Shown in pieces: positions 1,011 through 59,167 of a stretch of DNA of 64,000 nt. The notes under the pieces were generated by a model. It worked only from the letters and a program-made list of their open reading frames with translations, had not been told where the DNA came from and did no database searches. Origin of the DNA: an uncultured Eubacteriales bacterium (lineage in GTDB: Bacteria > Bacillota > Clostridia > Monoglobales > CAYZNM01); NCBI GenBank assembly GCA_964479875.1, contig CAYZNM010000013.1, forward strand, positions 21,573 to 85,572, written 5' to 3'. Numbering within the stretch: the stretch's first letter is position 1; each line of letters starts with the position of its first letter. Position numbers and translations under genes: made by a program.

Positions 1011-1080
1011 TCAATATTTATTGAAAGGGGTGATTGCGGAAGTTATCACACGCAATGCTTACTATCAAAAAATAAATTAT

Positions 1081-2940: not shown

Positions 2941-2960
2941 GAATAGCAATTAGCGGCAGG

Positions 2961-2984
2961 TGGGACGCTCACGCGGCGTCCCAT
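2961..2984 (+). terminator. Stem-loop (gggacgc ... gcgtccc) after the SBP gene; possible weak terminator or attenuator.
   Basis: 7-bp GC-rich inverted repeat with a 7-nt loop followed by a weak T-rich tract (attt). Confidence 0.35.
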
Positions 2985-3029
2985 TTGCATAATAAGACGT
3001 AGACTAATAAAAGACAATCGGAGAGTAAT

Positions 3030-4049: not shown

Positions 4050-4056
4050 ATCAAAC

Positions 4057-4086
4057 GGGCGGATAATATCCGCCCATACATTTTTA
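4057..4086 (+). terminator. Rho-independent terminator after the GH130 gene.
   Basis: Hairpin gggcggat-aat-atccgccc followed by a T-run (acattttta). Confidence 0.55.
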
Positions 4087-4099
4087 TTGGAGAGTCATT

Positions 4100-5491
4100 A
4101 TGACAAAATATTCCATTGAACAGGCTATGCTTACTAATGCAACTCGGCATGACGATTGCGCTTCGCTGCTGGGCGAGGACGACAGTGCTATTCTTTTTGC
4201 AATAACTGCTCCGGCGGACGGCTATTATGCATTCACGGTAAATGCGCGTATATCCAAAGGCTTTGCTGTGGAGAATCCGAAGCCGGGCGAAGTTACACAT
4301 AAGCTTAACCATTTGTACGTTGATGGCAAGCAGTATGCGGAGTTTGCAATAAACAGCGGCGAGCGCGAGAATGCAGTGGTGCGCCGCATATATTTATCCA
4401 AGGGTGAACATACGGCGGCGATTGTGAAATCGTGGGGATTTATCGATGTGTTCCACATTGAAATTGCCGAAGCTGCGCCTATGCCGTCGGATATATACAC
4501 GGTCGGCAGCGAGCTGCTAAATCCCAACGCAAGCGATAACGCAAAGCGTCTGTACGCTTTCCTGCGTGAAAACTACGGCAAAAAGATAATCACAGGGCAG
4601 CAGGTGTACGGGCTTGTGAGCAAGGAGATGGAAACGCTCAAAGCTACTACGGGCAAATTGCCATTGCTCGGCGGCTTCGACTTTATCGAGAACAGCCACA
4701 ATCTCACATACCACGACGCGCCGAGCGACTTCGTAGGCAACGCGATAAAATGGCACAACGCAGGTGGTATTACGACATTCTGCTGGCACTGGACTGCCCC
4801 TTGCGACACCTTCGAGGACGATGCGGAGAATCCGGTCAACGGCTCATTCTACACCAAGCATAGCAAGTTCGACATAGCTAAAACGCTGGATAATCCCGAT
4901 AGCGAAGCGTATCGTCTGCTGATAAAGGACATCGACTTAATTTCGGATAAGATTAAGCTTCTTGCGGATAACGGCGTGCCAATACTGTGGCGTCCGCTGC
5001 ATGAAGCAAGCGGCGCATGGTTCTGGTGGGGCGCACGCGGCGCGGACGCTTGCGTGAAGCTGTGGAAGTTAATATACGACAGAATGACCAACGTGCATAA
5101 GTTGAACAATCTTATTTGGGTGTGGAATGGGCAGGACGTGAATTGGTATCCCGGCGACGAATACTGCGACATCATCGGCGAAGACATATATCCCGGAAAG
5201 CAACAGGATACGCCGCAGTACGAGCGATTCATGCAAGCATACAACACAACGCAAAGCCGCAAGATTATCGCGCTGTCCGAAAACGGCTGCATACCTGACA
5301 TCGACATGCTTGTGCGCGACAACGTGATGTGGTCGTGGTTCTGCGTATGGGGCGGCATGTTCGTGTATAAACAAGACGAAAACGGCGAAACGGTTTACAG
5401 CGATGAGTACACAAAGAAGGATATTCTGCTAAAGGCGTACAATCACGAACGCGCATTAACCCTAGACAATGCGCCGCGCATTTTTAAATAA
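4100..5491 (+). CDS. GH26 endo-beta-1,4-mannanase.
   Basis: 'WRPLHEASGAWFWWG' is the GH26 acid/base-region signature (R-x-x-HE...W-x-WWG). 'IIALSENG' is the candidate nucleophile region. GGAGAG RBS. No obvious signal peptide, so it may be intracellular. Confidence 0.8.
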   Translation: MTKYSIEQAMLTNATRHDDCASLLGEDDSAILFAITAPADGYYAFTVNARISKGFAVENPKPGEVTHKLNHLYVDGKQYAEFAINSGERENAVVRRIYLSKGEHTAAIVKSWGFIDVFHIEIAEAAPMPSDIYTVGSELLNPNASDNAKRLYAFLRENYGKKIITGQQVYGLVSKEMETLKATTGKLPLLGGFDFIENSHNLTYHDAPSDFVGNAIKWHNAGGITTFCWHWTAPCDTFEDDAENPVNGSFYTKHSKFDIAKTLDNPDSEAYRLLIKDIDLISDKIKLLADNGVPILWRPLHEASGAWFWWGARGADACVKLWKLIYDRMTNVHKLNNLIWVWNGQDVNWYPGDEYCDIIGEDIYPGKQQDTPQYERFMQAYNTTQSRKIIALSENGCIPDIDMLVRDNVMWSWFCVWGGMFVYKQDENGETVYSDEYTKKDILLKAYNHERALTLDNAPRIFK

Positions 5492-5500
5492 GAGGTAACT

Positions 5501-8042: not shown

Positions 8043-8082
8043 AAAAAATACCACCACGCAAATCGCATGGTGGTATTTTTTA
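8043..8082. terminator. Bidirectional rho-independent terminator between the convergent GH31 and activase genes.
   Basis: A-run, hairpin ataccacca-(11 nt loop)-tggtggtat, then T-run. The flanking runs let it work in both orientations. Confidence 0.7.
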
Positions 8083-8955
8083 TTGCAGCTTCGCCGTGAT
8101 TCCATGGGCGGCGAATTGTGCGGCTGCTTGCGCATTTTCAGCTTTGGTGCGAGGGCTTATGTTTGCGTAGGCATAGGGTATGCCTAGTGCGCGATACTTT
8201 GCTTCGCCTAGGCGATGGTAGGGCAGTAGGTCGCATTCGCTTACGCCTAGCTGCTGCATTAGCTTGCACAAATCCGCGATGTCGTCGTCGCTGTCGTTGA
8301 ATCCTGGAATGAGCGGCACGCGCACGATTGCTTTGCCGACAGCGAGTAGCTTCGAGAGGTTTCTCGCGATTAACTCGAGGTCGCCGCCGATTTGTGCATA
8401 CTTCTCTGCCGAAGCTGTCTTTATGTCGAATAGGAATAAATCCGCATATGGCAGCACCTTCTCGAACGCGGAGTACGGCGCACTTCCGGCAGTATCCACC
8501 GCAGTATGCAAGCCGTTGGCTTTGCACTCACGCAAAAGCTCCTGCATAAAATCGGGCGACAACATAGGTTCGCCGCCGGATATTGTCACACCGCCGCCGC
8601 TTGCCTCATAGAAAGCTTTATCCTGCATTACAATAGGCACAATCTCGCTCACGCCCAACGCCCTCGCAGACAAGCGCATCGCTCCGCTTGCGCAATACTC
8701 TGCGCATTTTCCGCACAGCGTACACTTCGCGCCATCTGCTTTATCCGCCGACACTCGCGCGTCGCATACCTTAGTGCACAATCCGCAGTCGCTGCACATA
8801 TTTTCAAAATACATCAGCTGCGGGTTATTCGATAAAGCCTCGGGATTATGGCACCACGGGCAACGCAAATTGCACCCCTGCAAAAACACAGTCGTGCGAA
8901 TTCCAGGGCCATCGCTCACCGAAAACTTTTGTATGTCAAACACATAGGCTTGCAT
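8080..8955 (-). CDS. Glycyl-radical enzyme activating enzyme (radical SAM, with extra ferredoxin-like clusters).
   Basis: N-terminal 'GPGIRTTVFLQGCNLRCPWCHNPE' (CxxxCxxC radical-SAM motif plus the GRE-AE Gly-rich motif). Two additional CxxCxxCxxxC clusters (CSDCGLCTKVC, CTLCGKCAEYC). Its start overlaps the stop of the upstream glycyl-radical enzyme gene. Confidence 0.85.
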   Translation of the reverse strand: MQAYVFDIQKFSVSDGPGIRTTVFLQGCNLRCPWCHNPEALSNNPQLMYFENMCSDCGLCTKVCDARVSADKADGAKCTLCGKCAEYCASGAMRLSARALGVSEIVPIVMQDKAFYEASGGGVTISGGEPMLSPDFMQELLRECKANGLHTAVDTAGSAPYSAFEKVLPYADLFLFDIKTASAEKYAQIGGDLELIARNLSKLLAVGKAIVRVPLIPGFNDSDDDIADLCKLMQQLGVSECDLLPYHRLGEAKYRALGIPYAYANISPRTKAENAQAAAQFAAHGITAKLQ

Positions 8956-11093
8956 TACTCCTGCTCCGTTCGATTAAGTATATCCTTCTGCACCTCGTCC
9001 CACAGCGAGGTGTAAAACGCACTAAAGCCCGATACACGTACAACCAAGCTCCTGTACTTGTCGGGATTCACCATAGCGTCAGCCAAAATCTCACGCGACA
9101 CCGAATTAATTTGCATCTCCTGTCCACCCATGTTGAAATAGGTTTTGATTGCAAGGGCAAGCTTTCGCTTCTTCTCCGGACTTGAAAAGATTGAGGGGCT
9201 GAACTTTTGGTTTACAACTGTGCCGCACGTCACCTTTGTGTAATCAGGCTTTGTGAGGGATTGTATCGCCGAGGTGAAGCCGTTTTTGTCCATTCCGTAC
9301 ATCGGCGACGCGGCGTCGGACATAGCTTGCTTGGCTTTTCTGCCATCGGGGCTCGCCGCGCATTCCATGCCTGCCGTGATGTTGTTGATGTTGGAGGCGA
9401 TTGCGATATAGAATGGGCCGCCGTCGCGCGTCTTGAAGCGGTTGAATAGCTCTGCTATGTGGTCGACGTACCACACTGCGTATTGGTCTACGTAGTCGTT
9501 GTTGTTGCCATACTTGGGAGCGTTCAGGCATAGTGCGCGGATTTCGTCGTAGCCTGCGAAGTCTGCTTTTAGTGCGGCGACAAGCTGCTCCATCGTCACA
9601 AGCTTTTCGTCGTACACAAGCTTTTTAATCGCGGCAAGGCAATCTGCGACCGTCGCGATTCCCATGCAGCCTGCTCCGTGCGCAGACGGATATACCGCGC
9701 CGCCGCAGTTTATGTCAAGCCCACGCGCTATGCAATCGTCGAACAGCACCGAGAGGAAAGGAGTGGTGTAGTTGCTATGGTTTATGCCATCGTTCATATT
9801 GTTGAACATGGCGACGTATTCTTGGGAGGAATAATCAAGCTGCGCCTTGAACGCTTCCATGAAATCATCGAAGGTAGCAAAGCTAGAAGCAGGTGGTGTG
9901 GCAACGCCCATCGGCTTACCCGTCAGCATACACACACCTTCATTGAGCGCAAGCTCAATATACTTAGGCACATTGTAACGCCCATCGCTCCACGGCGGCT
10001 GCTTCCCCGGAATAAAATTCTCAATGCAGCCCACCATGCAATAATTGCGCGCGTCCTCGAGCGAATACCCACGCTCAAGCAGTGCAGGCACATTCACATC
10101 ATCATTCATCATAGCAGGATATCCAAGCCCCGAGCCTATTACATCAAGGCAAGCGTTGATGAATTCAAGCGACGTTTCCTTATGAATACGCGCAGACAAA
10201 TTAGGCCCCGGCACATTGCACTCGTGTACGGCTTTCAGCAGTGCATACGACAGCTCATTCGTAGCGTCGCCGCCCTCTGGAGTTACGCCGCCGATACATA
10301 TGTTCACAACATCATCATAGCCGCCGACCTCGCGTATACCCATAATCTTGTACAACGCATTAGCGCACAACTCCACGGCCTGATCGAACGTGATACGCCC
10401 TGCCGCCTTATCCGCTTCATAAAATGGGTACAAATACTGATCCATGCGCCCCAACGCCATAGCGAATCTACCCTCGTAGCAATACGCCACATGCGTAAAC
10501 CAAACAAGCTGCAACGCCTCGGCGAAAGTTTGCGGCTTGTCGAACGCAATATTCGCACACCGCTGCGCAATCTCCGCAAGCTGCCGCTTACGCTCATCAT
10601 CGGCAGTCATGCTTTTTGCACGCGCAAGCTCTGCATACTGGGTTATGTAAACCGAAAACGCATCCAGCGTCATATCCATCGCACGCAAAAATGTCACCCT
10701 AGCTTCATCGTCCCTATGCACCCGCATAGAATCCGCAATCTCGACGCGCAATCCGCTAATCCCCACTTCCAGCAGCTTATCATATCGCGGACAAGCGTGG
10801 TCGCCATTCAACCCAAAGTGCCTATACCCAAAGCTGTTGTTGTAATTGTTCGCAATCTCCAACAATCCTTCATCAACTTCAACGTTAATGAATCCGCGAA
10901 AGCAGCCCAAGATTAAATCGTTGTCATATATATGCTTCTTATGCTCGGTAAGCAGCCCATGAAAAGCGTGCGCACGCGCAATGCAATTCGGCTGTGTCAA
11001 CGCCTTTTGATAGCCGTGATACATATAAATGCCGCGCACGTCCTTGCCCTCAAGCCTGTTTGGAGTTAGCTCCGATTTAAGCCCGTTTAACAT
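8955..11093 (-). CDS. Glycyl-radical enzyme (PFL2/dehydratase-like family), 712 aa.
   Basis: C-terminal glycine-radical motif 'RVSGFSAFYTSL'. Active-site loop 'MVGCIENF' (Cys-x-Glu, as in glycerol/propanediol dehydratase, HypD and CutC-type eliminases rather than PFL). GAGGT RBS before the ATG at 11093. Confidence 0.85.
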   Translation of the reverse strand: MLNGLKSELTPNRLEGKDVRGIYMYHGYQKALTQPNCIARAHAFHGLLTEHKKHIYDNDLILGCFRGFINVEVDEGLLEIANNYNNSFGYRHFGLNGDHACPRYDKLLEVGISGLRVEIADSMRVHRDDEARVTFLRAMDMTLDAFSVYITQYAELARAKSMTADDERKRQLAEIAQRCANIAFDKPQTFAEALQLVWFTHVAYCYEGRFAMALGRMDQYLYPFYEADKAAGRITFDQAVELCANALYKIMGIREVGGYDDVVNICIGGVTPEGGDATNELSYALLKAVHECNVPGPNLSARIHKETSLEFINACLDVIGSGLGYPAMMNDDVNVPALLERGYSLEDARNYCMVGCIENFIPGKQPPWSDGRYNVPKYIELALNEGVCMLTGKPMGVATPPASSFATFDDFMEAFKAQLDYSSQEYVAMFNNMNDGINHSNYTTPFLSVLFDDCIARGLDINCGGAVYPSAHGAGCMGIATVADCLAAIKKLVYDEKLVTMEQLVAALKADFAGYDEIRALCLNAPKYGNNNDYVDQYAVWYVDHIAELFNRFKTRDGGPFYIAIASNINNITAGMECAASPDGRKAKQAMSDAASPMYGMDKNGFTSAIQSLTKPDYTKVTCGTVVNQKFSPSIFSSPEKKRKLALAIKTYFNMGGQEMQINSVSREILADAMVNPDKYRSLVVRVSGFSAFYTSLWDEVQKDILNRTEQE

Positions 11094-47004: not shown

Positions 47005-48091
47005 CGCGTGGGGCAAGCTGACAGGCGTACGCCCAACTAAGCTGTACATGGATTATGTAAACCGATACGGCGCAGCAGACGCATCAGAATTATTCATGCG
47101 CGACTACGCCGTATCGCAAGCAAAAACAAAACAGCTTGCCGAAATCGCGCAGCAGGAAAAGCAAATAATTGCCGAGGTAGGCGAAAATTCTGCCGCGGTT
47201 TATGTAAATATACCTTTCTGCCCATCGCGCTGCCTTTATTGTTCGTTTGTGACTTGCATTAAGCAAACGCCTAAGATTATGGACGATTATGTTGCCGCTG
47301 TGATGCGCGAAATTGAGCGGCGGCAGTTTCCTGCGGCGAAGATTGCGTCTGTGTACATCGGCGGCGGCACGCCTATTTCAATCGGCGCGGCGCGATTGAG
47401 TGCGATTATTTCAGCATTGAAGCAGCGGTATGAAATTGCGCCCGACGTTGAATTTACTGTAGAAGCAGGGCGACCCGATTGCATTGACGGCGAAATATTG
47501 GACATGCTGCAATCCCACGGCGTAACGCGAATCTGCATTAATCCGCAAACGCTTAATGATTCCACGCTGGAATTAATCGGGCGCAAGCATTCGGCGGAGG
47601 ATTTTTTCGCAGCATATGCTATGTCACGCGGCAGATTCCGCATAAACTGCGACATAATCGTAGGGCTTCCCAACGAGAGCATGGACGACTTTACTGCAAC
47701 TTTAGACGGAGTACTGTCGTGCGAACCGCAGGGGATTACCGTGCATACATTATGCGTAAAACGCGGCTCGCGCTTGAATGAATATATCGGCGACTACGAC
47801 CTATCGACCGGGAACACTCGCGAAATGACCGACTACGCCTATCGCAAGCTATCGACAAGCGGCTACCCTCCCTACTACCTCTATCGTCAAAAGAAAACGC
47901 TCGGCAACCTCGAAAACATCGGCTACAGCAAGCCCTCGCACCATTGTCTGTACAACATCATCAGCATTGCCGAAAGCCACAGCATTTACGCCTACGGCGC
48001 AGGCGCAGTGACAAAAATTGTCGCGGACAATATCACGCGCGAGTGGAACAACAAAGAACCGATGGCATACATCAGGGAGCAGCTCACTTGA
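46991..48091 (+). CDS. Radical SAM protein of the coproporphyrinogen-III oxidase-like (HemN/HemW/HemZ) family.
   Basis: 'VNIPFCPSRCLYCSF' CxxxCxxC motif and 'VYIGGGTP' SAM-binding block. About 70-aa N-terminal extension before the radical-SAM core. Confidence 0.65.
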   Translation: MCKANAWGKLTGVRPTKLYMDYVNRYGAADASELFMRDYAVSQAKTKQLAEIAQQEKQIIAEVGENSAAVYVNIPFCPSRCLYCSFVTCIKQTPKIMDDYVAAVMREIERRQFPAAKIASVYIGGGTPISIGAARLSAIISALKQRYEIAPDVEFTVEAGRPDCIDGEILDMLQSHGVTRICINPQTLNDSTLELIGRKHSAEDFFAAYAMSRGRFRINCDIIVGLPNESMDDFTATLDGVLSCEPQGITVHTLCVKRGSRLNEYIGDYDLSTGNTREMTDYAYRKLSTSGYPPYYLYRQKKTLGNLENIGYSKPSHHCLYNIISIAESHSIYAYGAGAVTKIVADNITREWNNKEPMAYIREQLT

Positions 48092-48482
48092 ACACGACAA
48101 AGCGGCTGAAAATATAGTTCAGCACCACCACGATAAAGTTGGACACAACCTTCACAAGAAGGTCGTTTATTCCGAAATTCGTGACAAATACATACAAAAT
48201 CACTGTGTCGATGATTAAGGTCGCAACGCGAATGGTGAAAAAACGCACAAGTTGTTTTGTGGCGTGAACCTTGCTCTCCGATTTGTTGCGGAACACGAAT
48301 TGCTTGTTTGTGACAAATGCGAAGAACACCGATATGATGAAGGCGGGAATGTTGCTGTCGACGACGTTCCAGCCTAAAAAGCGCGTGCAAAAGCTGTAGA
48401 CGCCGAAGTTTATCACGGTCGTGACGCCGCCGAACAGCATGTAGTAGATGTAGCTTTGATATTTATGGAATAATTGTTTCAT
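48084..48482 (-). CDS. GtrA-family membrane protein.
   Basis: 132 aa, 4 TM. 'FGGVTTVINFGVY...' GtrA-like N-terminus. Last gene of the minus-strand operon. Confidence 0.65.
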   Translation of the reverse strand: MKQLFHKYQSYIYYMLFGGVTTVINFGVYSFCTRFLGWNVVDSNIPAFIISVFFAFVTNKQFVFRNKSESKVHATKQLVRFFTIRVATLIIDTVILYVFVTNFGINDLLVKVVSNFIVVVLNYIFSRFVVFK

Positions 48483-48485
48483 ACT

Positions 48486-49145
48486 TTACCTACGTTCCAA
48501 GTTGTACTTTTTTAGGACGCGACGGATTATGCGCGCGAAGGGTGCGCCTGCGGTTAGCAGCAATGTGACATTTGTCGCGGCGTGCGCTATGTCCATCGGC
48601 AGTGACGCTGCCAATGCCGCGATATACGCAGGAAGCCCAAGCTCCTCGCCGGAGATTACATACCACTGCAAATTCATTATCGCACCGAAAACCATTGCCG
48701 ATACCGCTCCGTATATCGCGAGTACATACTTATTTTTGTTCGGGATAACTCCCGCACCCAGACCCATTAAGCCCCAGCCGATTATCTGGAACAGCGTCCA
48801 CATGCCCTGACCTAGTGTGATGTTGGAAGTCACTGCTGATATTATGCCCACGAGCATACCTGCTCCGCCGCCCATTGCCCAGCCGCTGATTATTACGATG
48901 AATGACGACGGAGTGATGTTCGGCAGTGCAGCGAAGGCTATGCGCGAAACTGCGGCGGTCGCAGATAATACGGCGAGCAGCACCATGTATTCGATCGCCG
49001 CGCCGCGCTCATACTTGTACACACACGCGGCTATCGCAAGCAAAGAGGCGCACATCGCTGAATACGCGTACTGCCGCGATATAGCCAACGCAATCACTCC
49101 TGCCGCGCAAGCAATCGCAATCAAAGCCAATGCAATCTTACGCAT
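48486..49145 (-). CDS. Putative ECF-transporter substrate-specific (S) component of unknown specificity.
   Basis: About 6-TM small hydrophobic protein immediately downstream of the fused ECF ATPase and T component. The ORF-track start (49268) adds a basic non-membrane extension; MRKIALALIA abuts the ATPase stop. Confidence 0.45.
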   Translation of the reverse strand: MRKIALALIAIACAAGVIALAISRQYAYSAMCASLLAIAACVYKYERGAAIEYMVLLAVLSATAAVSRIAFAALPNITPSSFIVIISGWAMGGGAGMLVGIISAVTSNITLGQGMWTLFQIIGWGLMGLGAGVIPNKNKYVLAIYGAVSAMVFGAIMNLQWYVISGEELGLPAYIAALAASLPMDIAHAATNVTLLLTAGAPFARIIRRVLKKYNLERR

Positions 49146-49146
49146 A

Positions 49147-50667
49147 CTACAATCCCTCGATGGTGCGCAGATTGCACGCTTGCGCGGCTTGCGCGAATGT
49201 GAGCGCGTTGCCGCCGATTGCTTTGTGCAGCTGCGTTGTGTAGAATATGTTGTCGGCGAAGAAATCAAGCGGTGGGGCTTCGTGCGCGATTTGTCCGTCG
49301 AAAACTAGGGCGCAGCGGTCGGCGGCTTGTGCCGCGAAATCCAGGTCGTGGGTTGTGATTATTGTTGTGATTTGCAGTTCGTGAAGCAGTCGCAGCAGCG
49401 TTTGCTTTGTGTTGTCGTCCATGCCTTTGGTTGGCTCGTCGAGAAGCAGCAGCTGCGGCTTTTCAAGCAATGCGGCGGCAATCGCGACACGCTGACGCTC
49501 GCCGCCGCTTAGGTCGTATGGGTGCGCATTTAGCAAATGCGACAGGTTGAATTGCTCGATGATTTTATGCTTTTGCTCACATTCTATCAGCTCATCTCCC
49601 ACTTTTTCGTGGCGAAAGTATGCGTTGATATTTTGTGGAATGTATGCCGCTTTAAGCTTGGGTGATTTACCCGAGGTAGGCTTGATGATTCCTGCGATAA
49701 TCTTCAGCAGCGTAGTTTTGCCGCTACCGTTGCCACCGATTATGCACAAGCATTCGCCGCTGTAAATCGTGAGGTTCAGGCGATTTAGTACAGGTGCGCT
49801 GTCTTTGTTGTAGATTTGTATTATGTCAACTAGCTTAAATAGTACATCGCGCTTTTGTGGAATTTCAGCTATAACCTTCGCGGCAGGCAGACTTTCCGCA
49901 AGCGCACGGCTCTCCTTCACAGAAAGCGGCGGATTATCACCGTCGGTCGCGGCAAAATATAGCTTTTGCAGCGGTGGAATATGCGCGTATGCTTGCTTAT
50001 CCCTTTTCTGCCAAATATCGCGCAGCACAGCCTTAGGGCTGCCACTGTAGCGCATTGTCGTATTCAGCACGAACATTTTGTCCGCATAGGGCAGTATGTT
50101 CTCAATATTATGCTCCGCAATCAGCACAGTTATGCCGCACTCGCGGTTGAGCCGCAGCACTAGGTCGAGCAAATCCCGCGCGTTAATCGGGTCTAGCATA
50201 GACAGCGGTTCGTCAAGCAGAAGCAGCTTCGGCTGCGTCATCAAAGCCGACGCAAGCGTCACAAGCTGCTTCTGTCCTCCCGATAAAGTTTCGCAGTCTG
50301 CGTCGAGCAATCGTTCGATTCCAAGAAAGCTCGCGGTTTCCGCAAGCCGCTTCCGCATTATAGCATTGGGCAAGCCGTGATTTTCCATAGGGAAAACAAG
50401 TTCCTGCCGCACAGTGCTTCGCACAATCTGCGTGTTAGGGTTCTGTGATACAATTGCAATCTCACTGTCGTCGCAGCCGATGTATATCTCTCCCGATACA
50501 GTGCCGTTAGGGCGCAGCGCTTTCTTTAGCAAATGCAGCAGCGTAGACTTTCCGCTGCCCGAAATTCCGCACAACGCGCCAATCTCGTGCCGCGCAAGCG
50601 ATAGTGTGACGTTGGATAGTATCGGCGTATTCTCATATGAAAAATGTAGGCTGTTAATCTTTAACAT
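49147..50667 (-). CDS. Fused tandem ECF-type ABC ATPase (EcfA1-EcfA2 duplication in one polypeptide).
   Basis: Two complete nucleotide-binding domains: Walker A 'GISGSGKST' and 'GGNGSGKTT', signatures 'LSGGQKQLV' and 'LSGGERQRV', Walker B 'LLLDEPLSMLD' and 'LLLDEPTKGMD'. Confidence 0.8.
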   Translation of the reverse strand: MLKINSLHFSYENTPILSNVTLSLARHEIGALCGISGSGKSTLLHLLKKALRPNGTVSGEIYIGCDDSEIAIVSQNPNTQIVRSTVRQELVFPMENHGLPNAIMRKRLAETASFLGIERLLDADCETLSGGQKQLVTLASALMTQPKLLLLDEPLSMLDPINARDLLDLVLRLNRECGITVLIAEHNIENILPYADKMFVLNTTMRYSGSPKAVLRDIWQKRDKQAYAHIPPLQKLYFAATDGDNPPLSVKESRALAESLPAAKVIAEIPQKRDVLFKLVDIIQIYNKDSAPVLNRLNLTIYSGECLCIIGGNGSGKTTLLKIIAGIIKPTSGKSPKLKAAYIPQNINAYFRHEKVGDELIECEQKHKIIEQFNLSHLLNAHPYDLSGGERQRVAIAAALLEKPQLLLLDEPTKGMDDNTKQTLLRLLHELQITTIITTHDLDFAAQAADRCALVFDGQIAHEAPPLDFFADNIFYTTQLHKAIGGNALTFAQAAQACNLRTIEGL

Positions 50668-51475
50668 TAATTTGCACGTCCATTATAATAGGAAGCAATG
50701 TGTAAAACGCAATCAAAGGCAGCGCGGCAGCTTGTGCAACAAATATCGCAGTCACCACAACTGAGCACAGCGTTAAAAACGCAGCGTCGCTTGCCTTAAA
50801 CTCCTGCCGTGCATACGCGGTGCGCGACACGGTGTCGTACCCCTTCACCTTGATGCTTTGCGCAAGCTGCATACCTTCCTCGAGCGACCAAGTAAGCAGT
50901 GTCTTGATTGTATCGGATGCTTGCGCGAGGGGATTCGCGGACTTTGCGCGCAAACCCTGCACCTCCGCTATCTCCTTGATGCGCTTGCCGTACAAAAACA
51001 TCAGCCGCACCGACATATCAACGGTCAGCGCAAGCTTGGGCATAACCTTCGCAAACAGCAGCATAACCCTGTCGCCTGTTACTACAGCGTTGTAAAACTG
51101 AAACAGCGTGTAGCTGTTGAATATCAGCAGCGCAAAAACCACGCCTAGGATAATCGCTTCGACCGTGATGGGGTTGTCCATGAAGTAGAACAATATCCCC
51201 CTGCCGCGATGGTTGAACAGCGGCGTAAGTATCGCATACGCAATCATCGCCGCGGCGACAAATTTGTACGAACTCATGCGCAATCTCGCATAAGCCGCCG
51301 CGCAAATCAGCAACATCACTGCCAACAGCAAGCTTTCAACAAGCTCGCGCCGCGTAAACACAATTGCAAACAGTGCGGTAAAATAAACAAAAAGCGACAG
51401 CGGATGTACATTATAAAAGCGCGACAATGCAAGCCGCGCTAATCTATCTTTGTAGGCTTTTCCAAAAATCGCCAT
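50654..51475 (-). CDS. ECF-transporter T component (CbiQ family).
   Basis: Polytopic membrane protein with the CbiQ-like C-terminal region, overlapping the ATPase gene start. Confidence 0.65.
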   Translation of the reverse strand: MAIFGKAYKDRLARLALSRFYNVHPLSLFVYFTALFAIVFTRRELVESLLLAVMLLICAAAYARLRMSSYKFVAAAMIAYAILTPLFNHRGRGILFYFMDNPITVEAIILGVVFALLIFNSYTLFQFYNAVVTGDRVMLLFAKVMPKLALTVDMSVRLMFLYGKRIKEIAEVQGLRAKSANPLAQASDTIKTLLTWSLEEGMQLAQSIKVKGYDTVSRTAYARQEFKASDAAFLTLCSVVVTAIFVAQAAALPLIAFYTLLPIIMDVQINVKD

Positions 51476-52170
51476 TCTACAATATCACCTGCTGCTAGGT
51501 CGCACTTTCCTGCGCTCACCTTGGGTATTTCGCCGTTGACGTAGTATTGCCAGCCGCTTTCCGCGCCGTTGTCGCCTTCATAAAGGTTGTCGATTCCCTT
51601 TATGTATACGTTGCTGCCTACGCCGCCGAATTCCATTTGAATTTTGTTGGCGCGAGTTATGTCTTTGAGGAGGGAGAATACGGTCATTTCGTCGGAGTAT
51701 TCGGCTTGGGTCTGGGCCAGGATTGTGCTATCAAAGCCTTCGATTGTGATTGAAACAGTTGCGGCAGCCGGAGTTTGCTCCGGTTCTGCTGTAGTTTCTT
51801 GTGTTTGCTCCGGCTCTTTGGTTTTATCATCAGATTTAGCCACTGTCGTCACGGTAGAGTTTAATGTGGTGGACAGTGTTGTGGTTACAGTCGAATCAAG
51901 TGTTGTTGCGATTTGCTTGGTCGGTTCAGGCGAAGGCTCGGGGGTTGCTTCCTCAGTTGCTTCAGGCTCTTCCGTAGGCTCTTCGGATTGTTCCGGCTCT
52001 ATTTTCTTTATGGTGGCAGGAGAGGGCGGCTCGGTCGGTTCAGGCTCGGGCTGCTCCGCATATGTTTCGACCGCAGCAGGAGGAACGTCCTCCTGCGCAG
52101 TCGGAGTTATCGTAATCGTGCAGGCCGACAGCAGCAATACCGCAGCCAGTATCATCATTATAAGCTTCAT
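51439..52170 (-). CDS. Secreted lipoprotein with a C-terminal DUF4430 (transcobalamin beta-domain-like) domain.
   Basis: Lipobox 'LLSACT'. Pro/Glu/Thr-rich linker. The C-terminal ~90 aa 'VSITIEGFDSTILAQT...GAESGWQYYVNGEIPKVSAGKCDLAAGDIVEWRF' resembles the DUF4430 pattern (GWMY.VNG ... L.DGD.IEWRY). Confidence 0.6.
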   Translation of the reverse strand: MKLIMMILAAVLLLSACTITITPTAQEDVPPAAVETYAEQPEPEPTEPPSPATIKKIEPEQSEEPTEEPEATEEATPEPSPEPTKQIATTLDSTVTTTLSTTLNSTVTTVAKSDDKTKEPEQTQETTAEPEQTPAAATVSITIEGFDSTILAQTQAEYSDEMTVFSLLKDITRANKIQMEFGGVGSNVYIKGIDNLYEGDNGAESGWQYYVNGEIPKVSAGKCDLAAGDIVEWRFLEKPTKID

Positions 52171-53561
52171 CTATTCGCAGCGTCCCTCATTTCTTGTTCA
52201 GCGAAAAATTCGATTATCGCCGTAATTACTATGTCGCGGCGCATGTAGTCGTTTACATCGAAGTTGTGGCGTTTCTTGAACGATTCCATGAATGCGCTGC
52301 CGAAGTTTGCTTCCAGGTTTTCCATATAAATGTTCGCACTTAGCGAAATGTTGTCAAGGTTAAGCTCCATTATGCTTTTAGTGACTTGCTTTTTGTATTC
52401 GTTTTCGCCGCCCTCGGATAGGGTGATGTGGTAAAAGTTGAGGTGCTTGCATAGGTCGTAGTAGCCTGTGCCCTCGAATATGTCCATGTAGCGGAGCAGC
52501 ATTAGCACGTAGTCGGTCATGCGCACGTATTCGTTCGGGTATAGCTTGCCCTCGCTGCCTAAGGCTACGCCTTTTTGCCTTGCTGTTTTGATTGCGTTCA
52601 ATGTTGTGGGTAACGCTTTGCCGATGTCGAAATACTGCGGATAGTAGCGTTCGCCGCTTAGGTATGCGTAGTAGTCACATAATGCCATGAGTGCTTGCTC
52701 GTTGGAATAATCGTCCGCCGCGGAATTGTCCATGTAGCCGAAGCCGCCGCCCTCTGCCTTAAATGTCAGCAGATTGTCAAGCAAGCTCGCGTCTTTAACG
52801 AATCTCTCGTCGCTCGCGGAATCAACTCCAAGCGCAGACAGTGCGGAAATCACGGTCGCGGCAGTGTTGGAGTTTTCGCTGCCCCACGACATAAATCCGC
52901 CGCCAGAAGTTTGCGTCTGCGACAATAGCTCCACACACTTGTCCGCGATCGCGGAGGCTTTCGCGTACAGCGGATGGCTTTCGATTGCGCAGTACGGTGC
53001 AAGCGCGATTAGCACAAGCGATGTCGCGTCAGGGTCGAAATCCTCGCCTGTGAAGGAGAATCCGCCGCCTTCAAGCTGCCCTTCGGCGATTGCGTCGATG
53101 TACTTCTCTGCGCTGTTGCTTGCGTCATAGGGGAACGCGTAGTTCACCTCGGTCAACGCGCGCAGTGCGTAAGCGTAGGAAATAGGCGACAGCATTAAGC
53201 TTGAATCTGCGTTGGCGATTACGCTGTATAGGTTAATCTTGCCGCTCTCGGTCTTGATGTTTGCGCAGTCCACGCCAAGGCTGCTAAGGCACATTGCAAG
53301 CTTTGCATAATCCGTAACAGAGGTGCGTTTTCCTGTTTGCGCAGCTTTGTCCAAATAGTAGTCGATGTGCTTCTGCTTGTCGAATTCAACCCCTGCCTTC
53401 ACAAGTGAAATCACAGCCCACTCCGACAATATCTCGGAATCCTGCATAGTCGCGTAAAGCTGTTCAATCTCCTGTGAAATATCCTCGCGCGGCGATTCGG
53501 CATACACTGTAAAGCTGCACGCAAGCACAACCAACGCAATCAAGCATGTCTTTATTTTCAT
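52167..53561 (-). CDS. Secreted alpha/alpha-toroid protein (prenyltransferase/squalene-oxidase repeat-like).
   Basis: Signal peptide (MKIKTCLIALVVLACSFTVYA). Repeated helical hairpins with 'GGGF' motifs (EGGGFSFTG, SGGGFMSWG, EGGGFGYMD) typical of terpenoid-cyclase-like alpha6/alpha6 toroids. ORF-track start at 53624. Confidence 0.5.
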   Translation of the reverse strand: MKIKTCLIALVVLACSFTVYAESPREDISQEIEQLYATMQDSEILSEWAVISLVKAGVEFDKQKHIDYYLDKAAQTGKRTSVTDYAKLAMCLSSLGVDCANIKTESGKINLYSVIANADSSLMLSPISYAYALRALTEVNYAFPYDASNSAEKYIDAIAEGQLEGGGFSFTGEDFDPDATSLVLIALAPYCAIESHPLYAKASAIADKCVELLSQTQTSGGGFMSWGSENSNTAATVISALSALGVDSASDERFVKDASLLDNLLTFKAEGGGFGYMDNSAADDYSNEQALMALCDYYAYLSGERYYPQYFDIGKALPTTLNAIKTARQKGVALGSEGKLYPNEYVRMTDYVLMLLRYMDIFEGTGYYDLCKHLNFYHITLSEGGENEYKKQVTKSIMELNLDNISLSANIYMENLEANFGSAFMESFKKRHNFDVNDYMRRDIVITAIIEFFAEQEMRDAANR

Positions 53562-53592: not shown

Positions 53593-54852
53593 TTATTTTT
53601 TCCTCTTGCGCCTTTTATATGCACTGCGCAGAATCGCGCGAATGATAAAGTATAAAGCTATCAAAATCACACAGACGCCGCCTGTGAGCAGCAAGCCTGT
53701 CGATACCCATTTTTCGCCCAGCATGTCGATTAGCTTTGCTTGATACAGCGATATGTAATCGAGCTGCACATTGTCTGCGGCGGCAAGCGGCACTGCCGCA
53801 ATAAGCTTGCCGTTGACGTAGTAGCGCGCTTCGGCGTAAATCTCGCCCTTTGTAACAGGGGCGGTCAGCGGCTCGACTTCGATTTCCGTTTCTACCTTGT
53901 CGCCGCTGCCTAACAGGCAGTTGACGTTATCGGTCGACAGCAGCAGCACATGCCCCTTATTCTTACCATGGGTAACAGGTACTTCGCGTACAATTTCGTC
54001 CAGTCGCATAAGCGACACGTTGCCGTAATCAGTTTCCACGTAGTCGTAGAGCTGCTGCGCCATTGCGTAGCTTTGCTTGATTCCGTCAACTATGTCCGCA
54101 TTCGCGATAATCGCCGTGACAAATGCGCCGTCCTTCTTCCAGAACACGGCCATGGTTTCGCCGTTTACAGGGCAAAAGCCGCCGATGAATCGCTCGTCGA
54201 TAAGCCTGTCGTCGTGGAAAACTTCGATAAAGTGGTTGTTGGAGTAGATGTATCGCGCAGGACCTATGTTTGTCGCGGGATATGACACTCTCCCGGTCGA
54301 CAATATCGATTGCAGATGAGGATTGCGCATTGCCTCATTAAATAATATGTTCAGGTCAGCTAGGGTTGTGTATCCCTGTGACGCAGGTATTCCTGCCGGA
54401 TTGGTGAAGTTGGAGTTGCTCATGCCAAGCTCCGCCGCTTTTTTATTCATAAGACGCGCGAATTGCTCGAGGCTGCCGCTTATCTCGTACGCAAGCGCGT
54501 ACGCCGCGTCGACAGCGTTGCCGACCAGCATTCCGTTAAGGCACATCTCGGCCGTGACAACCTCGCCCACCTTCAAGCGCATGTTGCGGTAGCTGTTGAA
54601 ATACGCGACACGCATGTCCTCGGTAAAGACAATGTTTCGGCTCATGCCTATATTTTCGACGGCGACAAGCGCAGTCATCAGCATTGCGTAATCCTGCCCC
54701 ACGATACGCATGTCCGCGTTTTGCGAAAATATAACCGAGCCGCCGTCCGCCGAAAGCAACACTGCCGCATTAGGGGTAAAAGTCGGCGCGGCAAAACAAA
54801 CCTGCACCGTAAGCACAATCGCAAGCAGCAACAGCACTAGCTTAAATCTCAT
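53593..54852 (-). CDS. PBP5/DacA-like D,D-carboxypeptidase homologue lacking the catalytic SxxK Ser and Lys (predicted pseudo-enzyme), C-terminally membrane-anchored.
   Basis: Signal peptide. 'SQNADMRIVGQDYAMLMT' aligns to DacA 'EQNADVRRDPASLTKMMT' with Ser to Asp and Lys to Met. C-terminal TM plus RKRKK stop-transfer. Confidence 0.55.
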   Translation of the reverse strand: MRFKLVLLLLAIVLTVQVCFAAPTFTPNAAVLLSADGGSVIFSQNADMRIVGQDYAMLMTALVAVENIGMSRNIVFTEDMRVAYFNSYRNMRLKVGEVVTAEMCLNGMLVGNAVDAAYALAYEISGSLEQFARLMNKKAAELGMSNSNFTNPAGIPASQGYTTLADLNILFNEAMRNPHLQSILSTGRVSYPATNIGPARYIYSNNHFIEVFHDDRLIDERFIGGFCPVNGETMAVFWKKDGAFVTAIIANADIVDGIKQSYAMAQQLYDYVETDYGNVSLMRLDEIVREVPVTHGKNKGHVLLLSTDNVNCLLGSGDKVETEIEVEPLTAPVTKGEIYAEARYYVNGKLIAAVPLAAADNVQLDYISLYQAKLIDMLGEKWVSTGLLLTGGVCVILIALYFIIRAILRSAYKRRKRKK

Positions 54853-55475: not shown

Positions 55476-55572
55476 CTCTTTGGCAAATCAGTTACATATA
55501 TTATAACTTTTATTAGCCGCATTGTCAAGGCTATATGCGACTTCGGCACTAATTCCCAACAACGACGCTGTT

Positions 55573-57351
55573 TCATTCCACGTACCATTTAGCTTGTGCG
55601 CGGTACATTTTCGCGTACAGGCCGTCGTGCGAAATTAGCTCGGCGTGGCTTCCGTCCTCGACAATTCTGCCCTTGTCGAACACAAGCACGCGGTCAACCA
55701 CGCTTGTGATACCTAGTCTGTGAGAGATGAGGATTGTCGTTTTGTCGCCTGTTAGCTGCGTGAAGTTGCGGTAGATTCCGGCTTCGGCGATTGGGTCTAG
55801 TGCGGCGGTGGGTTCGTCTAAGATGTACACGCGTGCGCTTTTGCGATAGAGTGCCCGAGTTATCGCAACCTTTTGCCACTGTCCGCCCGACAGATTGTTG
55901 CCTTCGTCCGAGAATATGCCAATCATTTCATCTAGCGAATTTTCCTGCCCCTTTATCACTTCGTCGGCGCCTGTGCGATGCGCAAGTTCCAGTATTTCAC
56001 TGCTTTCTCCGGCGCGCGTCGGGTCTGAAATGGTGATGTTGTTGCGTAGGGTGTCTTGATATTGGCAAAAGCTTTGGAATATAACCGAGAGTGATTTGCG
56101 AACCCTTGAGAGGTTTTGCGTTATCTCTGCGCCATTTATTTTTGCGCTGCCGCTTTCGGGCGCATACAATCCGCATAGGAGGTTTACGAAGGTTGATTTG
56201 CCACTGCCGTTTGCGCCTACTATCGCAACCTTTTCGCCCTGCCGAATTTTTATTGAAAGTCCGTCTAATGCTTTAAATTCGCTGTGCGGATAGGTGAAGC
56301 TTACGTTGGCAAACTCAATTTCCGCATTTGCGTAACCTACTTGTGCGTCGTCCAAAACTTCCTTTTCGGTTTCCAATAATTCGAAGAAGTCCTCGATGTA
56401 TTTTGCGTCGGAAAATATGCTGACTGCGTTGATTAGCAGCGTCGTCGTGATGGATTGCAGCTGCCCTGCCGCTGTGACAACTAGCATAAACGCGCCTAGC
56501 CCCTTGGTCGGATTCTGAAATATCTCCCACGCGGCCATCAATATAACTGCCAGATAAACACCATTGCGCAGCAAATCGGCAATGCCGTTGTACAACACAT
56601 GCTTGCGCGTTATTTTATTCTTCTCATTGATAAATATCTCGCCCAAAGCGAACCACTTCGCTTTAAGATACTGATAAAGCCCGAAGAATCGTATCTCCTT
56701 CATGGCTTGATTGGAGCGGCAGGTGTCGGAAAGCTGAAGCGTCAATCGCCCTTCCTTCATCCATTTGGTGCGTCCGCGATATGTTTCGTCCTTTTGCAGC
56801 ATGGACAAAATTACCGACGGAATGCAGGTGACAATCAGCACGGCGACAATCCATATGCTGACCTCCGACAGGATAAATGTTATGCTTGCGAACGAGATTA
56901 TTCCGGCAATCCAACCGAATATGAGCGATACGCTGCCTGCTGTTTTTTCGCCTGCGTAGGTTTTTACGAAGTCTACTCGTTCGCGGAAATCGCCGTGGTT
57001 TTCTATATATTTGTACGGCACGCTTGATAGTAGGTGCAGCATTTGCTCCTTCAAATATCTCTTAATCCGCGCGGAATCCTCGCCGGCATAATAGTTTTGC
57101 GCAAGGGTGAAGAGCGTTTGCAGCGTGTACAGCACGGCTAGTATGCCGAAGGATAGTATAACTGCATTGAGAGTTTCGGGGTTATCGAACAAGGCTTGCA
57201 CGCCGTTTGTAAACGCCGCAAGCCTAAGCGATATGAACATAGGCAGAAATGCGGCGGCGAATCCGAGAATGCTTACGATAAATGACATCGGGCTTTTGAT
57301 TCGCACGCTAAGAGCGACTGCGCGCATAAAATATTTGAATTTACTCATCAC
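55573..57351 (-). CDS. ABC exporter, fused permease/ATPase (type I exporter, half-transporter).
   Basis: Six N-terminal TM helices. NBD with Walker A 'GANGSGKST', signature 'LSGGQWQKV', Walker B 'YILDEPTAALD'. Confidence 0.85.
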   Translation of the reverse strand: MMSKFKYFMRAVALSVRIKSPMSFIVSILGFAAAFLPMFISLRLAAFTNGVQALFDNPETLNAVILSFGILAVLYTLQTLFTLAQNYYAGEDSARIKRYLKEQMLHLLSSVPYKYIENHGDFRERVDFVKTYAGEKTAGSVSLIFGWIAGIISFASITFILSEVSIWIVAVLIVTCIPSVILSMLQKDETYRGRTKWMKEGRLTLQLSDTCRSNQAMKEIRFFGLYQYLKAKWFALGEIFINEKNKITRKHVLYNGIADLLRNGVYLAVILMAAWEIFQNPTKGLGAFMLVVTAAGQLQSITTTLLINAVSIFSDAKYIEDFFELLETEKEVLDDAQVGYANAEIEFANVSFTYPHSEFKALDGLSIKIRQGEKVAIVGANGSGKSTFVNLLCGLYAPESGSAKINGAEITQNLSRVRKSLSVIFQSFCQYQDTLRNNITISDPTRAGESSEILELAHRTGADEVIKGQENSLDEMIGIFSDEGNNLSGGQWQKVAITRALYRKSARVYILDEPTAALDPIAEAGIYRNFTQLTGDKTTILISHRLGITSVVDRVLVFDKGRIVEDGSHAELISHDGLYAKMYRAQAKWYVE

Positions 57352-59167
57352 CTGCCACCTCCGCGTCTTTTTGATACCACTGGGCTTGCTCGTTGAAAAA
57401 TTGAGCGTATAAGCCGTTTTTCGCCATCAGCTCGTCGTGGGTGCCGATTTCGGCAACCTTGCCGCTGTCGAGCAGGATAATCCTGTCGGCAAGCCGCGCA
57501 AAGCCTACGCGGTGGCTGATTAATATTGCGGTACGTCCTTCGATTTTCTCCTTGATGTTGGTGAATTGTTCGAGTTCGGATATGGGGTCGAGCATTGACG
57601 CAGGCTCGTCGAAAATTAAAATGTCCTTGTCGCTCATGTGTGCGCGGGATACAGCGAGTTTTTGCTTCTCACCTCCCGAAAACTCTGCTCCTGTTTCTTC
57701 AATCCATTTGTATATGAAGGTGTCCTTGCCTTTTTCGAGGCGTGATACAAAGCTTGACGCTCCGCCTTTTGTCAGGGCGGCGTTTATCTTTTCATCATCT
57801 GCCACGTGGTCGATGTCGCCGAAGCCGATGTTTTCGCCGATTGGCGAGTGGAATAGGTAGTAGTCTTGGAAAAACGCACCTATTTTGTTTTTGAGGAAGC
57901 CATGCTCCAGTTTTTCGTAGTCGTCGCCGTTGAAGAATAGCTTGCCCGAAAGCGGCTTGTATAGTTGCAGCAGCAGCTTGATGAGCGTGGATTTGCCGCT
58001 GCCGTTTACGCCTACTAATGCGATTGTTTCGCCTTTTTTGATTGACAGCGACACATTGTCAAGTGCAAGCTTGTCACTCTTGTAGGAGTAGGATAGATTT
58101 TTTGTTTCAAATACAATGTCTGATTCCGCGGCCGCCTTTGATTTAGCTTGCGACTGCGTCGGCGCAGGTTTGCGTAAGCCGAATATGCGATACTGCCGCT
58201 CCAACGCGTACATGCCGTGGTCGGTTAGCATTAGCGTGCGCGCTATGCCTGACACCGATGTGAAAATGTTCATGCAGAACGTGTATATCACAAGCAGCAC
58301 TGCCGCCGTCATACTTCCGTTTGCCACAGCGAACAGCGAATAAATCGTCATAGCAGCAAGGAATATGTAAAAGCCAAAGCCGCTGATGAATGTTCGTATT
58401 TCCACAGCGAGATTGTTTTCCACCTCGTAGTTGTATATCGCGGAATATGCTTCCTTCCAATTCTTGATAAGCCGCTCCTTCGACTCGAAAATACGCAGCT
58501 CCTTCGCGTATTCCTGCGAATAGGGCATGTCCTCGTAATGGCCTGCAAGCCGATCCTTGTCGCGAATTTTGTGCCAATTATACCGCAGCTTTTCTACAAA
58601 CACGAGGTTCAGCCAAATAATGCCAATCACATATACAAGCGAAATTACAAATATCAGCTTAGACAAAGTGAACGCGACCGTGAGCAATGACACAAGCCCC
58701 ACGAATTTGCCGAGCAACGTGCAGCAGCCGCTGATTACATCGGTAAGCGAGCCCTCGCGCATTACGCAAGCGTAGTATTCGTCGTTGGTGTCCTTTTTGA
58801 GCAGCTCCTCCATCGAGAAAGTTTGTACGCTGTCCATCAACAATTCCGACATACCGAAGTAATATTTGTTGTACATGACCGAGTAAAGGAACTCGACGTT
58901 GAAGCGATTGGAAAGTCCGATTAACGCTGTGATGATTCCGAACATTACAATCGTCGGCAGTATGTCGTCGAAGCTTCCGCTGCCTGTTGAGATAAAGCTG
59001 TTCAGCGCGGTGATGATTGCTTTGTTGTACGCAAGTGCAATCGCAGGCAGCACCGATATTGCCGACACTAGCAAGCACCACGTAAGCAGCACAACCTTGT
59101 CGACCTTCCACGCAAGCGAAAACGCCCAGACCATTGCTTTGAGCTTGTGCCCTTTGGTTTGATTCAT
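57341..59167 (-). CDS. ABC exporter, fused permease/ATPase (partner half-transporter).
   Basis: TMD plus NBD with 'GVNGSGKST', 'FSGGEKQKL', 'LIFDEPASMLD'. Its stop overlaps the downstream partner's start by 11 nt, which fits a heterodimer. Confidence 0.85.
   Translation of the reverse strand: MNQTKGHKLKAMVWAFSLAWKVDKVVLLTWCLLVSAISVLPAIALAYNKAIITALNSFISTGSGSFDDILPTIVMFGIITALIGLSNRFNVEFLYSVMYNKYYFGMSELLMDSVQTFSMEELLKKDTNDEYYACVMREGSLTDVISGCCTLLGKFVGLVSLLTVAFTLSKLIFVISLVYVIGIIWLNLVFVEKLRYNWHKIRDKDRLAGHYEDMPYSQEYAKELRIFESKERLIKNWKEAYSAIYNYEVENNLAVEIRTFISGFGFYIFLAAMTIYSLFAVANGSMTAAVLLVIYTFCMNIFTSVSGIARTLMLTDHGMYALERQYRIFGLRKPAPTQSQAKSKAAAESDIVFETKNLSYSYKSDKLALDNVSLSIKKGETIALVGVNGSGKSTLIKLLLQLYKPLSGKLFFNGDDYEKLEHGFLKNKIGAFFQDYYLFHSPIGENIGFGDIDHVADDEKINAALTKGGASSFVSRLEKGKDTFIYKWIEETGAEFSGGEKQKLAVSRAHMSDKDILIFDEPASMLDPISELEQFTNIKEKIEGRTAILISHRVGFARLADRIILLDSGKVAEIGTHDELMAKNGLYAQFFNEQAQWYQKDAEVAGDE

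Follow-up and report, generated by a model that had tools for sequence, protein, structure and literature searches.

Here, we describe a gene for a divergent relative of penicillin-binding protein (PBP) 5, which we call pseudo-PBP5, in a 64,000-nucleotide stretch of DNA from an uncultured Eubacteriales bacterium of the Monoglobales lineage (GenBank assembly GCA_964479875.1, contig CAYZNM010000013.1; hereafter the window). The protein belongs to the PBP5/DacA-type family (MEROPS S11) and has lost the SxxK, SxN and KTG motifs on which the chemistry of that family depends, and its gene lies directly downstream of mecA, which encodes a homologue of the ClpC adaptor. A first reading made from the letters alone (the sequence-only reading) had placed the gene inside an operon for an energy-coupling factor (ECF) uptake system with a toroid protein, and had proposed that a dead PBP was recruited there as a binding or scaffolding component, possibly for a D-Ala-D-Ala-like or beta-lactam-like ligand. 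We think it probable, with moderate confidence, that pseudo-PBP5 is instead a maintained, non-catalytic envelope protein paired with mecA, with a structural or regulatory role rather than that of ligand receptor for a transporter.

The family assignment is consistent across sequence and structure comparisons. Pseudo-PBP5 matches the Pfam models Peptidase_S11 at residues 22-184 (E 2e-22, 80.3 bits; curated cut-off 27.6 bits) and PBP5_C (PF07943) at residues 278-363 (E 2e-8, 34.7 bits; curated cut-off 21.2 bits). The NCBIfam equivalogs DacA, DacC, DacD, PBP3 and PBP4 are matched only below threshold, which suggests a divergent family member that is the orthologue of no named enzyme. As a sequence it matches 35 solved S11 structures, with Pseudomonas aeruginosa PBP5 (4k91) on top (E 3e-18), but the identity to solved structures is approximately 20%, and no entry of the databases searched exceeds 38%. 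An AlphaFold2 model made from a 40-sequence alignment has a mean predicted local distance difference test score of 92.3 and a predicted template-modelling score of 0.80. When compared with the Protein Data Bank by Foldseek, the model again finds 4k91 first (E 8e-25, template-modelling score 0.80 on the target), with Escherichia coli PBP6, E. coli PBP5 and Haemophilus influenzae PBP5 among the further top matches. Hydropathy gives two hydrophobic segments only, residues 1-27 and approximately 381-412, the second followed by a polybasic tail, which bears out the signal peptide and C-terminal membrane anchor that had been proposed from the letters. The alternative starts V6 and L8 were rejected because they would delete the positively charged n-region of the signal peptide. 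The predicted topology is that of a Gram-positive low-molecular-weight PBP, and the two-domain fold, signal peptide and anchor are shared with E. coli PBP5 and PBP6, P. aeruginosa PBP5 (4K91) and Bacillus subtilis DacB (3MFD).

Pseudo-PBP5 differs from these enzymes at the catalytic centre, where SxxK has become DYAM, SxN has become NAV and KTG is partly deleted and reads GFC. In the HMMER alignment to 4k91 the target segment 'aSLTKlmta' stands opposite 'qDYAMlmta', so that D54 and M57 face the nucleophilic Ser and the general-base Lys, just as the sequence-only reading had it (SxxK to DxxM). The register of the motifs is the same in multiple alignments with 12 relatives and with 149 relatives, and both agree that all three motifs are gone. 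The AlphaFold2 model has D54 at the N-terminal end of helix 55-67, which is where PBP5 carries its nucleophile. We also looked for an intact SxxK elsewhere in the protein. A regular-expression scan found none in the catalytic domain, the only matches lying in the beta-sandwich domain (SGDK at 316) and the cytoplasmic tail (SAYK at 410), and [KHR][TS]G was not found anywhere in the full protein.

The losses are selective. In 114 active relatives 45 alignment columns reach at least 80% conservation; pseudo-PBP5 retains approximately 33 of them, and its differences cluster at the three catalytic motifs, which argues that the motif loss is not due to chance. The retained positions include T60, E66, G96, E97, A116, A117, A121, G126, F131, M135, N136, A139, L142, G143, F149, N151, G154, T162, T163, D166, T194, R200 (tentatively the equivalent of PBP5 Arg198), N206, G224, A331, P332, G336 and L356. 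Given that the nucleophile, the general base, SxN and the Lys-Thr of KTG are missing, neither D,D-carboxypeptidase activity nor a beta-lactam acyl-enzyme is expected by the family mechanism. Judged from the S11 and PBP5_C matches, the model and the motif loss together, pseudo-PBP5 is catalytically dead by the acyl-enzyme chemistry of the S11 family, and the earlier description of a dead PBP fold holds.

Close relatives are very few. An exhaustive search of 1.84 billion representatives returned two closer proteins only, P0036 (38% identity, 262 bits) and P0037 (37%, 223 bits), and the family amounts to three clusters at 50% identity in that set. Both identities hold over the full length, and both proteins have the same topology, P0036 with an acidic N-terminal extension. 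The SxxK position reads DGAT in P0036 and GFAQ in P0037, the SxN position NAN and GNA, and the Lys of KTG is present in neither. Across the three orthologues (window, P0036, P0037) the residues at the dead site are D/D/G, M/T/Q, N/N/G and V/N/A. Such variation makes a conserved pocket for D-Ala-D-Ala or a beta-lactam unlikely, and weakens the proposal that a ligand of this kind is recognized. Residues invariant in the orthologues lie outside the old centre: DDR 214-216, R200, N206 and, in PBP5_C, VLLLS 302-306.

In all three lineages the pseudo-PBP5 gene follows mecA directly and in the same orientation, and on either side of the pair the neighbours are different in each. At the P0037 locus (L010, GCA_964635795.1) mecA at 1961-2605 is followed after a gap of 65 nt by the dead PBP gene at 2671-4080, then by a ComM/YifB-like gene and degV, so that this pair also heads a longer same-strand string, of unrelated genes. 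The first of these (4064-5653) encodes a Mg-chelatase-like ATPase of the ComM/YifB type with a Lon_C domain and overlaps the dead-PBP gene by 17 nt. At the P0036 locus (L013/L009, from an uncultured Eubacteriales metagenome-assembled genome, contig CAYPOE010000041.1) mecA at 1497-2117 and the dead PBP gene at approximately 2195-3664 are separated by approximately 77 nt, and a convergent protease-like gene follows. The MecA proteins of the two loci are 54-58% identical to that of the window.

We compared eight proteins of the window operon by tblastn with 92 loci, of which 80 had been fetched as S11 matches. MecA relatives occur at the three mecA-pseudo-PBP loci only, and no relative of the toroid, DUF4430, ecfT, ecfS or gtrA genes was found in any of the 92. 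The 80 S11 loci came from an alignment-based scan and consist of one true orthologue locus (L013) and 79 generic S11 loci; a scan of the GTDB species genomes with pseudo-PBP5 as a single protein found no relative. Relatives from a word-indexed search (at most 32% identity, active or partly active, in a ribF-dac context) were set aside as they are not orthologues. A metagenome scan with a MecA alignment gave a single, more distant mecA locus with no S11 gene there. In Acetivibrio thermocellum mecA lies near mreBCD with no S11 neighbour, and at L093, L098 and L099 (mecA at 40-50% identity) it is divergent from an rnfCDGEAB operon and followed by a gene of the Orn/Lys/Arg-decarboxylase fold. In the loci compared, the conserved unit is thus mecA plus the pseudo-PBP gene in a narrow lineage, and the adjacency to ECF and toroid genes is specific to the window genome. 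No description of mecA linked to an S11 or PBP gene was found in the literature searched.

The gene appears to be under constraint. The three orthologues are 25-38% identical, and all are full-length open frames with signal peptide, PBP5_C and anchor. Nei-Gojobori estimates for the three give non-synonymous divergence (dN) of 0.66-1.02 against synonymous divergence (dS) of 1.7-2.4, with ratios of 0.27-0.46; dS is saturated, in part above 2.4 or undefined, so the ratios are probably overestimates and serve as a qualitative sign of constraint only. At non-synonymous sites the pseudo-PBP5 gene evolves approximately 1.8 times faster than mecA. That a 1.26-kb frame is still open over such divergence makes neutral drift unlikely, and with dN below dS we regard the gene as maintained.

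Within the window the gene belongs to a longer string (Table 1). A sigma-70-type promoter upstream of mecA is the best promoter-like site between 47500 and 60000 in a consensus scan, and is likely the start of the unit that contains the pseudo-PBP5 gene. The mecA stop codon overlaps the ATG of the pseudo-PBP5 gene by 4 nt (ATGA). Downstream follow, on the same strand and all tightly spaced, the genes for the toroid protein, the DUF4430 protein, ECF T, a duplicated ECF ATPase, ECF S and a GtrA-family protein. The toroid gene likely starts with the ATG at 53561, preceded by the ribosome-binding site GGAAGG and 31 nt beyond the pseudo-PBP5 stop, and the consensus scan found no strong promoter or convincing terminator between the two genes. 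Co-transcription with the toroid genes is therefore likely, as read-through from the mecA promoter via the pseudo-PBP5 gene into the toroid/DUF4430/ECF genes. The placement inside an ECF/toroid operon stands to the extent that the genes are contiguous and probably co-transcribed, but the unit probably starts with mecA and the linkage is not conserved.

Two neighbouring features of the string were also recorded. The gtrA gene begins 3 nt after the ECF S gene and is the last of the string, with a weak terminator-like hairpin at 48075-48059. Two overlapping genes for half-size ATP-binding cassette (ABC) exporters, each with a transmembrane and a nucleotide-binding domain (592 and 608 aa), directly precede the mecA promoter in the same orientation (55573-59167, minus).

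Table 1. Features of the pseudo-PBP5 gene and of its transcription unit in the window (positions in window coordinates).
Feature	Position	Strand	Basis or remark
Pseudo-PBP5 open reading frame (S11-family homologue without SxxK, SxN, KTG)	53593..54852	-	419 aa, ATG start
Signal peptide, residues ~1-22 (MRFK, hydrophobic core, CFA/AP)	54787..54852	-	Hydropathy; model helix 2-16; cleavage site inferred from sequence
D54-Y-A-M57 at the SxxK position (nucleophile Ser to Asp, general-base Lys to Met)	54682..54693	-	Alignments; codons read; model
N112-A-V114 at the SxN position	54511..54519	-	Target 'SGN' aligned there (HMMER, 4k91); multiple alignments
G224-G225-F226-C227 at the KTG position; Lys and Thr lost, 3-residue deletion	54172..54183	-	Multiple alignments
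PBP5_C beta-sandwich domain, residues 278-363; holds orthologue-invariant VLLLS (302-306) and APV..G	53764..54021	-	Pfam; model strands 276-358; orthologue alignment
C-terminal transmembrane anchor (~381-405) and short polybasic cytoplasmic tail (406-419)	53596..53712	-	Hydropathy; long model helix 366-418
Sigma-70-type promoter TTGACA-17-TATAAT upstream of mecA	55500..55528	-	Consensus scan, 12/12 consensus
mecA, ClpC adaptor homologue, 208 aa	54849..55475	-	Pfam MecA E 1.6e-37, full length; NCBIfam MecA models
Toroid protein (alpha/alpha-barrel, prenyltransferase-like), probably lipoprotein	52167..53561	-	Weak Pfam Prenyltrans/SQHop_cyclase matches
DUF4430 protein, lipobox LSAC	51439..52170	-	Pfam PF14478 E 1e-16
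ECF T component	50654..51475	-	No Pfam match; inferred from position and from the equivalent placement of CbiQ genes in L094 and L096
Duplicated ECF ATPase	49147..50667	-	Pfam
ECF S component	48486..49268	-	Pfam
GtrA-family membrane protein	48084..48482	-	Pfam

Elsewhere, the uptake module stands on its own. Surface proteins with toroid homology are common and frequently come as fusions with DUF4430, SLH, dockerin or LPXTG domains. At two loci (L094 and L096) a toroid-DUF4430-CbiQ-ABC/ECF-S operon opens with the toroid gene, which has an intergenic region of its own in front of it, and neither of these two operons contains an S11 or mecA gene. The module therefore seems to be self-contained, and its adjacency to pseudo-PBP5 in the window is probably due to chance. 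The operon at L094 has no gtrA gene, unlike the window string. Lipobox-like signal peptides (...VVLAC/S in the toroid protein and ...LLSAC/T in the DUF4430 protein) suggest that both are probably lipoproteins, and we take the pair to resemble the two halves of transcobalamin. An Rfam scan of the whole window at gathering thresholds found no riboswitch (cobalamin included) or other RNA, and the literature searched held nothing directly relevant on DUF4430 with ECF.

Loss of the nucleophile is common among the wider relatives. Of the 150 nearest representatives, 36 have lost the Ser (G 13, A 8, D 6, E 3, N 2, others), and 12 of these do not have the Lys either, although this count is biased because a dead query ranks dead relatives first. 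In a rough neighbour-joining tree the window trio falls within a group of approximately 20 sequences, 19 of which are Ser-less, with further scattered losses elsewhere; long-branch attraction among fast-evolving dead sequences may affect this grouping. The free-standing Ser-less paralogues (for example, P0039, P0040, P0042 and P0044), which group with pseudo-PBP5 in the tree, have the same arrangement of S11, PBP5_C and C-terminal anchor, with Ser replaced by G, N, D or E, but most keep the Lys and often SxN, unlike pseudo-PBP5. Two gene contexts were examined: P0039 (L011) adjoins a gene for an M50 site-2 protease, and P0042 (L012) lies directly upstream of cdaA-ybbR and overlaps it. In these contexts no Ser-less paralogue outside the window trio adjoins mecA. 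Ser-less S11 paralogues are apparently a recurring and retained class in Clostridia that has gone undescribed, since we found no description of Ser-less or pseudo-enzyme S11 proteins in the literature searched.

Two other kinds of atypical S11 protein were seen in these searches. P0038 (916 aa) and P0041 (874 aa) are tandem S11+PBP5_C fusions in which the first unit keeps SxxK (ASITK, ASLTK) and the second has no Ser (ADLTA, ADTAK), followed by a C-terminal anchor and a long Pro/Ala-rich tail. We considered these fusions as a Rosetta-stone clue to a partner of pseudo-PBP5 and rejected them, as pseudo-PBP5 scores 124 bits against the dead and 112 bits against the active domain of P0038. With these nearly equal scores, and with the fusions grouping with active enzymes in the tree rather than with pseudo-PBP5, their dead domains look like an independent duplication. 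Among the SxxK-bearing relatives from the word-indexed search, the closest are the proteins of L001-L008 (P0002, P0019 and relatives). They read N-A-G where K-T-G would stand, and their genes belong to a conserved string of ireB, aldo-keto-reductase, ribF and dac; a second atypical S11 subgroup may be represented here.

Regulation of active enzymes by a dead cell-wall hydrolase homologue has been seen repeatedly: the degenerate-LytM factors EnvC, NlpD and SpoIIQ and the amidase-like CwlM all regulate or scaffold active partners. Like these proteins, pseudo-PBP5 combines a preserved hydrolase fold with missing catalytic residues in a gene that is maintained. The likeness is one of analogy only, given that the folds and families are unrelated; in the literature searched we found no equivalent description of a dead regulator for the PBP5/S11 family. 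In our reading, the signal peptide would direct the export of pseudo-PBP5, and the C-terminal helix would hold it on the outside of the membrane. The two-gene unit of mecA and pseudo-PBP would be transcribed from a strong, housekeeping-type promoter and, in the window genome, would stand in front of a self-contained toroid/DUF4430/ECF operon and probably read into it. By analogy with the dead hydrolases, the protein would most likely act by protein-protein or peptidoglycan contacts of its conserved fold, with contact surfaces that would lie outside the old catalytic centre and may include the PBP5_C domain. The scaffold or regulator role is what we propose from the comparisons, and the link to MecA may be functional or may go no further than shared transcription.

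Several observations weigh against a paired structural or regulatory protein. MecA resides in the cytoplasm and the PBP5-fold domain outside it, which leaves only the transmembrane helix and the 14-residue tail for a direct partnership, and that tail resembles the ordinary positive-inside tails of active homologues. Where mecA is more distant (40-50% identity), the gene that comes next is decarboxylase-like and there is no S11 neighbour. Adjacency to mecA is seen in three species-level lineages only, and could persist through a dependence of pseudo-PBP5 on the mecA promoter. Some substrate-side residues (R200, T162, T163, D166) are retained, which would allow residual binding of stem peptides, and the possible long-branch artefact in the tree counts on the same side. 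The 31-nt spacing to the toroid gene is as tight as between usual operon partners, and a lineage-specific link of pseudo-PBP5 to the uptake system may exist in the window genome.

In the original proposal, the dead PBP serves toroid/DUF4430/ECF uptake as a binding or scaffolding subunit, perhaps with a D-Ala-D-Ala- or beta-lactam-like ligand. The shared strand, the short distance, the lack of a credible terminator or promoter between the genes and the likely co-transcription all fit it, as does the predicted location of the dead PBP, toroid and DUF4430 proteins on the outer face of the membrane. We nevertheless consider it quite improbable: both orthologues have no ECF or toroid genes downstream, relatives of the toroid, DUF4430, ecfT and ecfS genes are absent from the 92 loci (80 of them S11 matches), the toroid-DUF4430-CbiQ-ABC operons of L094 and L096 begin at the toroid gene without S11, and the residues of the old active site vary among the orthologues, unlike those of a conserved ligand pocket. 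An unlikely but more interesting arrangement is a trans-envelope module, in which the pseudo-PBP senses peptidoglycan or stem peptides and, via its transmembrane helix and tail, tunes proteolysis by MecA/ClpCP, or, as a substrate of MecA/ClpCP, controls its own abundance. No synteny other than the mecA-pseudo-PBP pair is preserved across the three lineages, whose flanks are otherwise scrambled, and the two genes are translationally coupled in the window. In addition, ClpCP is known to control peptidoglycan synthesis through degradation of MurA (PMC8959180). Against such a module speak the different compartments of the two proteins, the short and generic tail, the lack of such a pair at the more distant mecA genes and around other Ser-less S11 proteins, and the possibility that the adjacency was inherited rather than selected. 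A bolder form of the same idea would make the pair an unrecognised trans-envelope device: the non-catalytic ectodomain would monitor the state of peptidoglycan or stem peptides (or bind an active PBP), and the anchor would couple that state to proteolysis under MecA/ClpCP control. Pseudo-PBP5 would then be one of a broad, unstudied Ser-less S11 class, with other members beside cdaA or site-2-protease genes; we regard this too as rather improbable.

Two further readings would leave pseudo-PBP5 either without a function or with a different chemistry. A former dac gene on its way to becoming a functionless pseudogene would account for the loss of all catalytic motifs, the approximately 1.8-fold faster evolution than mecA at non-synonymous sites and the tiny size of the family, but it is very unlikely in view of intact full-length frames in three lineages at 25-38% identity and saturated dS. 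It also fits poorly with the approximately 33 of 45 family-conserved positions kept, the high-confidence fold prediction, the retention of signal peptide, PBP5_C and anchor, and the strongly promoted, translationally coupled position of the gene. That the protein is still an enzyme, acting on the cell wall or on some other substrate by a different nucleophile or chemistry (Asp54 or Cys227, for instance), we find hardly credible. Two of the three orthologues, and several other Ser-less relatives as well, have Asp in place of Ser, and the fold and some substrate-side residues are kept; however, Gly stands there in the third orthologue, none of the polar residues that could take over at the old centre is invariant, and with Lys, SxN and KTG gone the oxyanion and proton-relay machinery is missing. 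Recruitment to the uptake system is not supported by the comparison with orthologue loci that have no such module and with the modules of L094 and L096 that have no S11 gene, and a maintained, non-catalytic envelope protein paired with mecA is the reading that we favour.

Other genes of the window give an impression of the organism. On the minus strand at 8080-11093 are genes for a glycyl-radical enzyme (pyruvate formate-lyase-like, 712 aa) and its radical S-adenosylmethionine activase, which adjoin genes of glycoside hydrolase families GH130, GH26 and GH31 and an ABC sugar-uptake system (21-8041). From this gene content it looks like a mannan- or oligosaccharide-degrading anaerobe.

For gene annotation, pseudo-PBP5 should be listed neither as a carboxypeptidase nor as a component of the ECF/toroid transporter. 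S11 proteins without the nucleophile are no isolated case, given that they make up approximately one-quarter of the 150 nearest representatives, and at least one small lineage keeps a copy linked to mecA. Should Ser-less S11 proteins have a regulating or scaffolding part in the trimming of clostridial peptidoglycan, surveys that rely on penicillin labelling would miss them, and their annotation as D,D-carboxypeptidases would be wrong. The finding is chiefly of value because it points to a class of pseudo-PBPs in Clostridia and because it corrects annotation.

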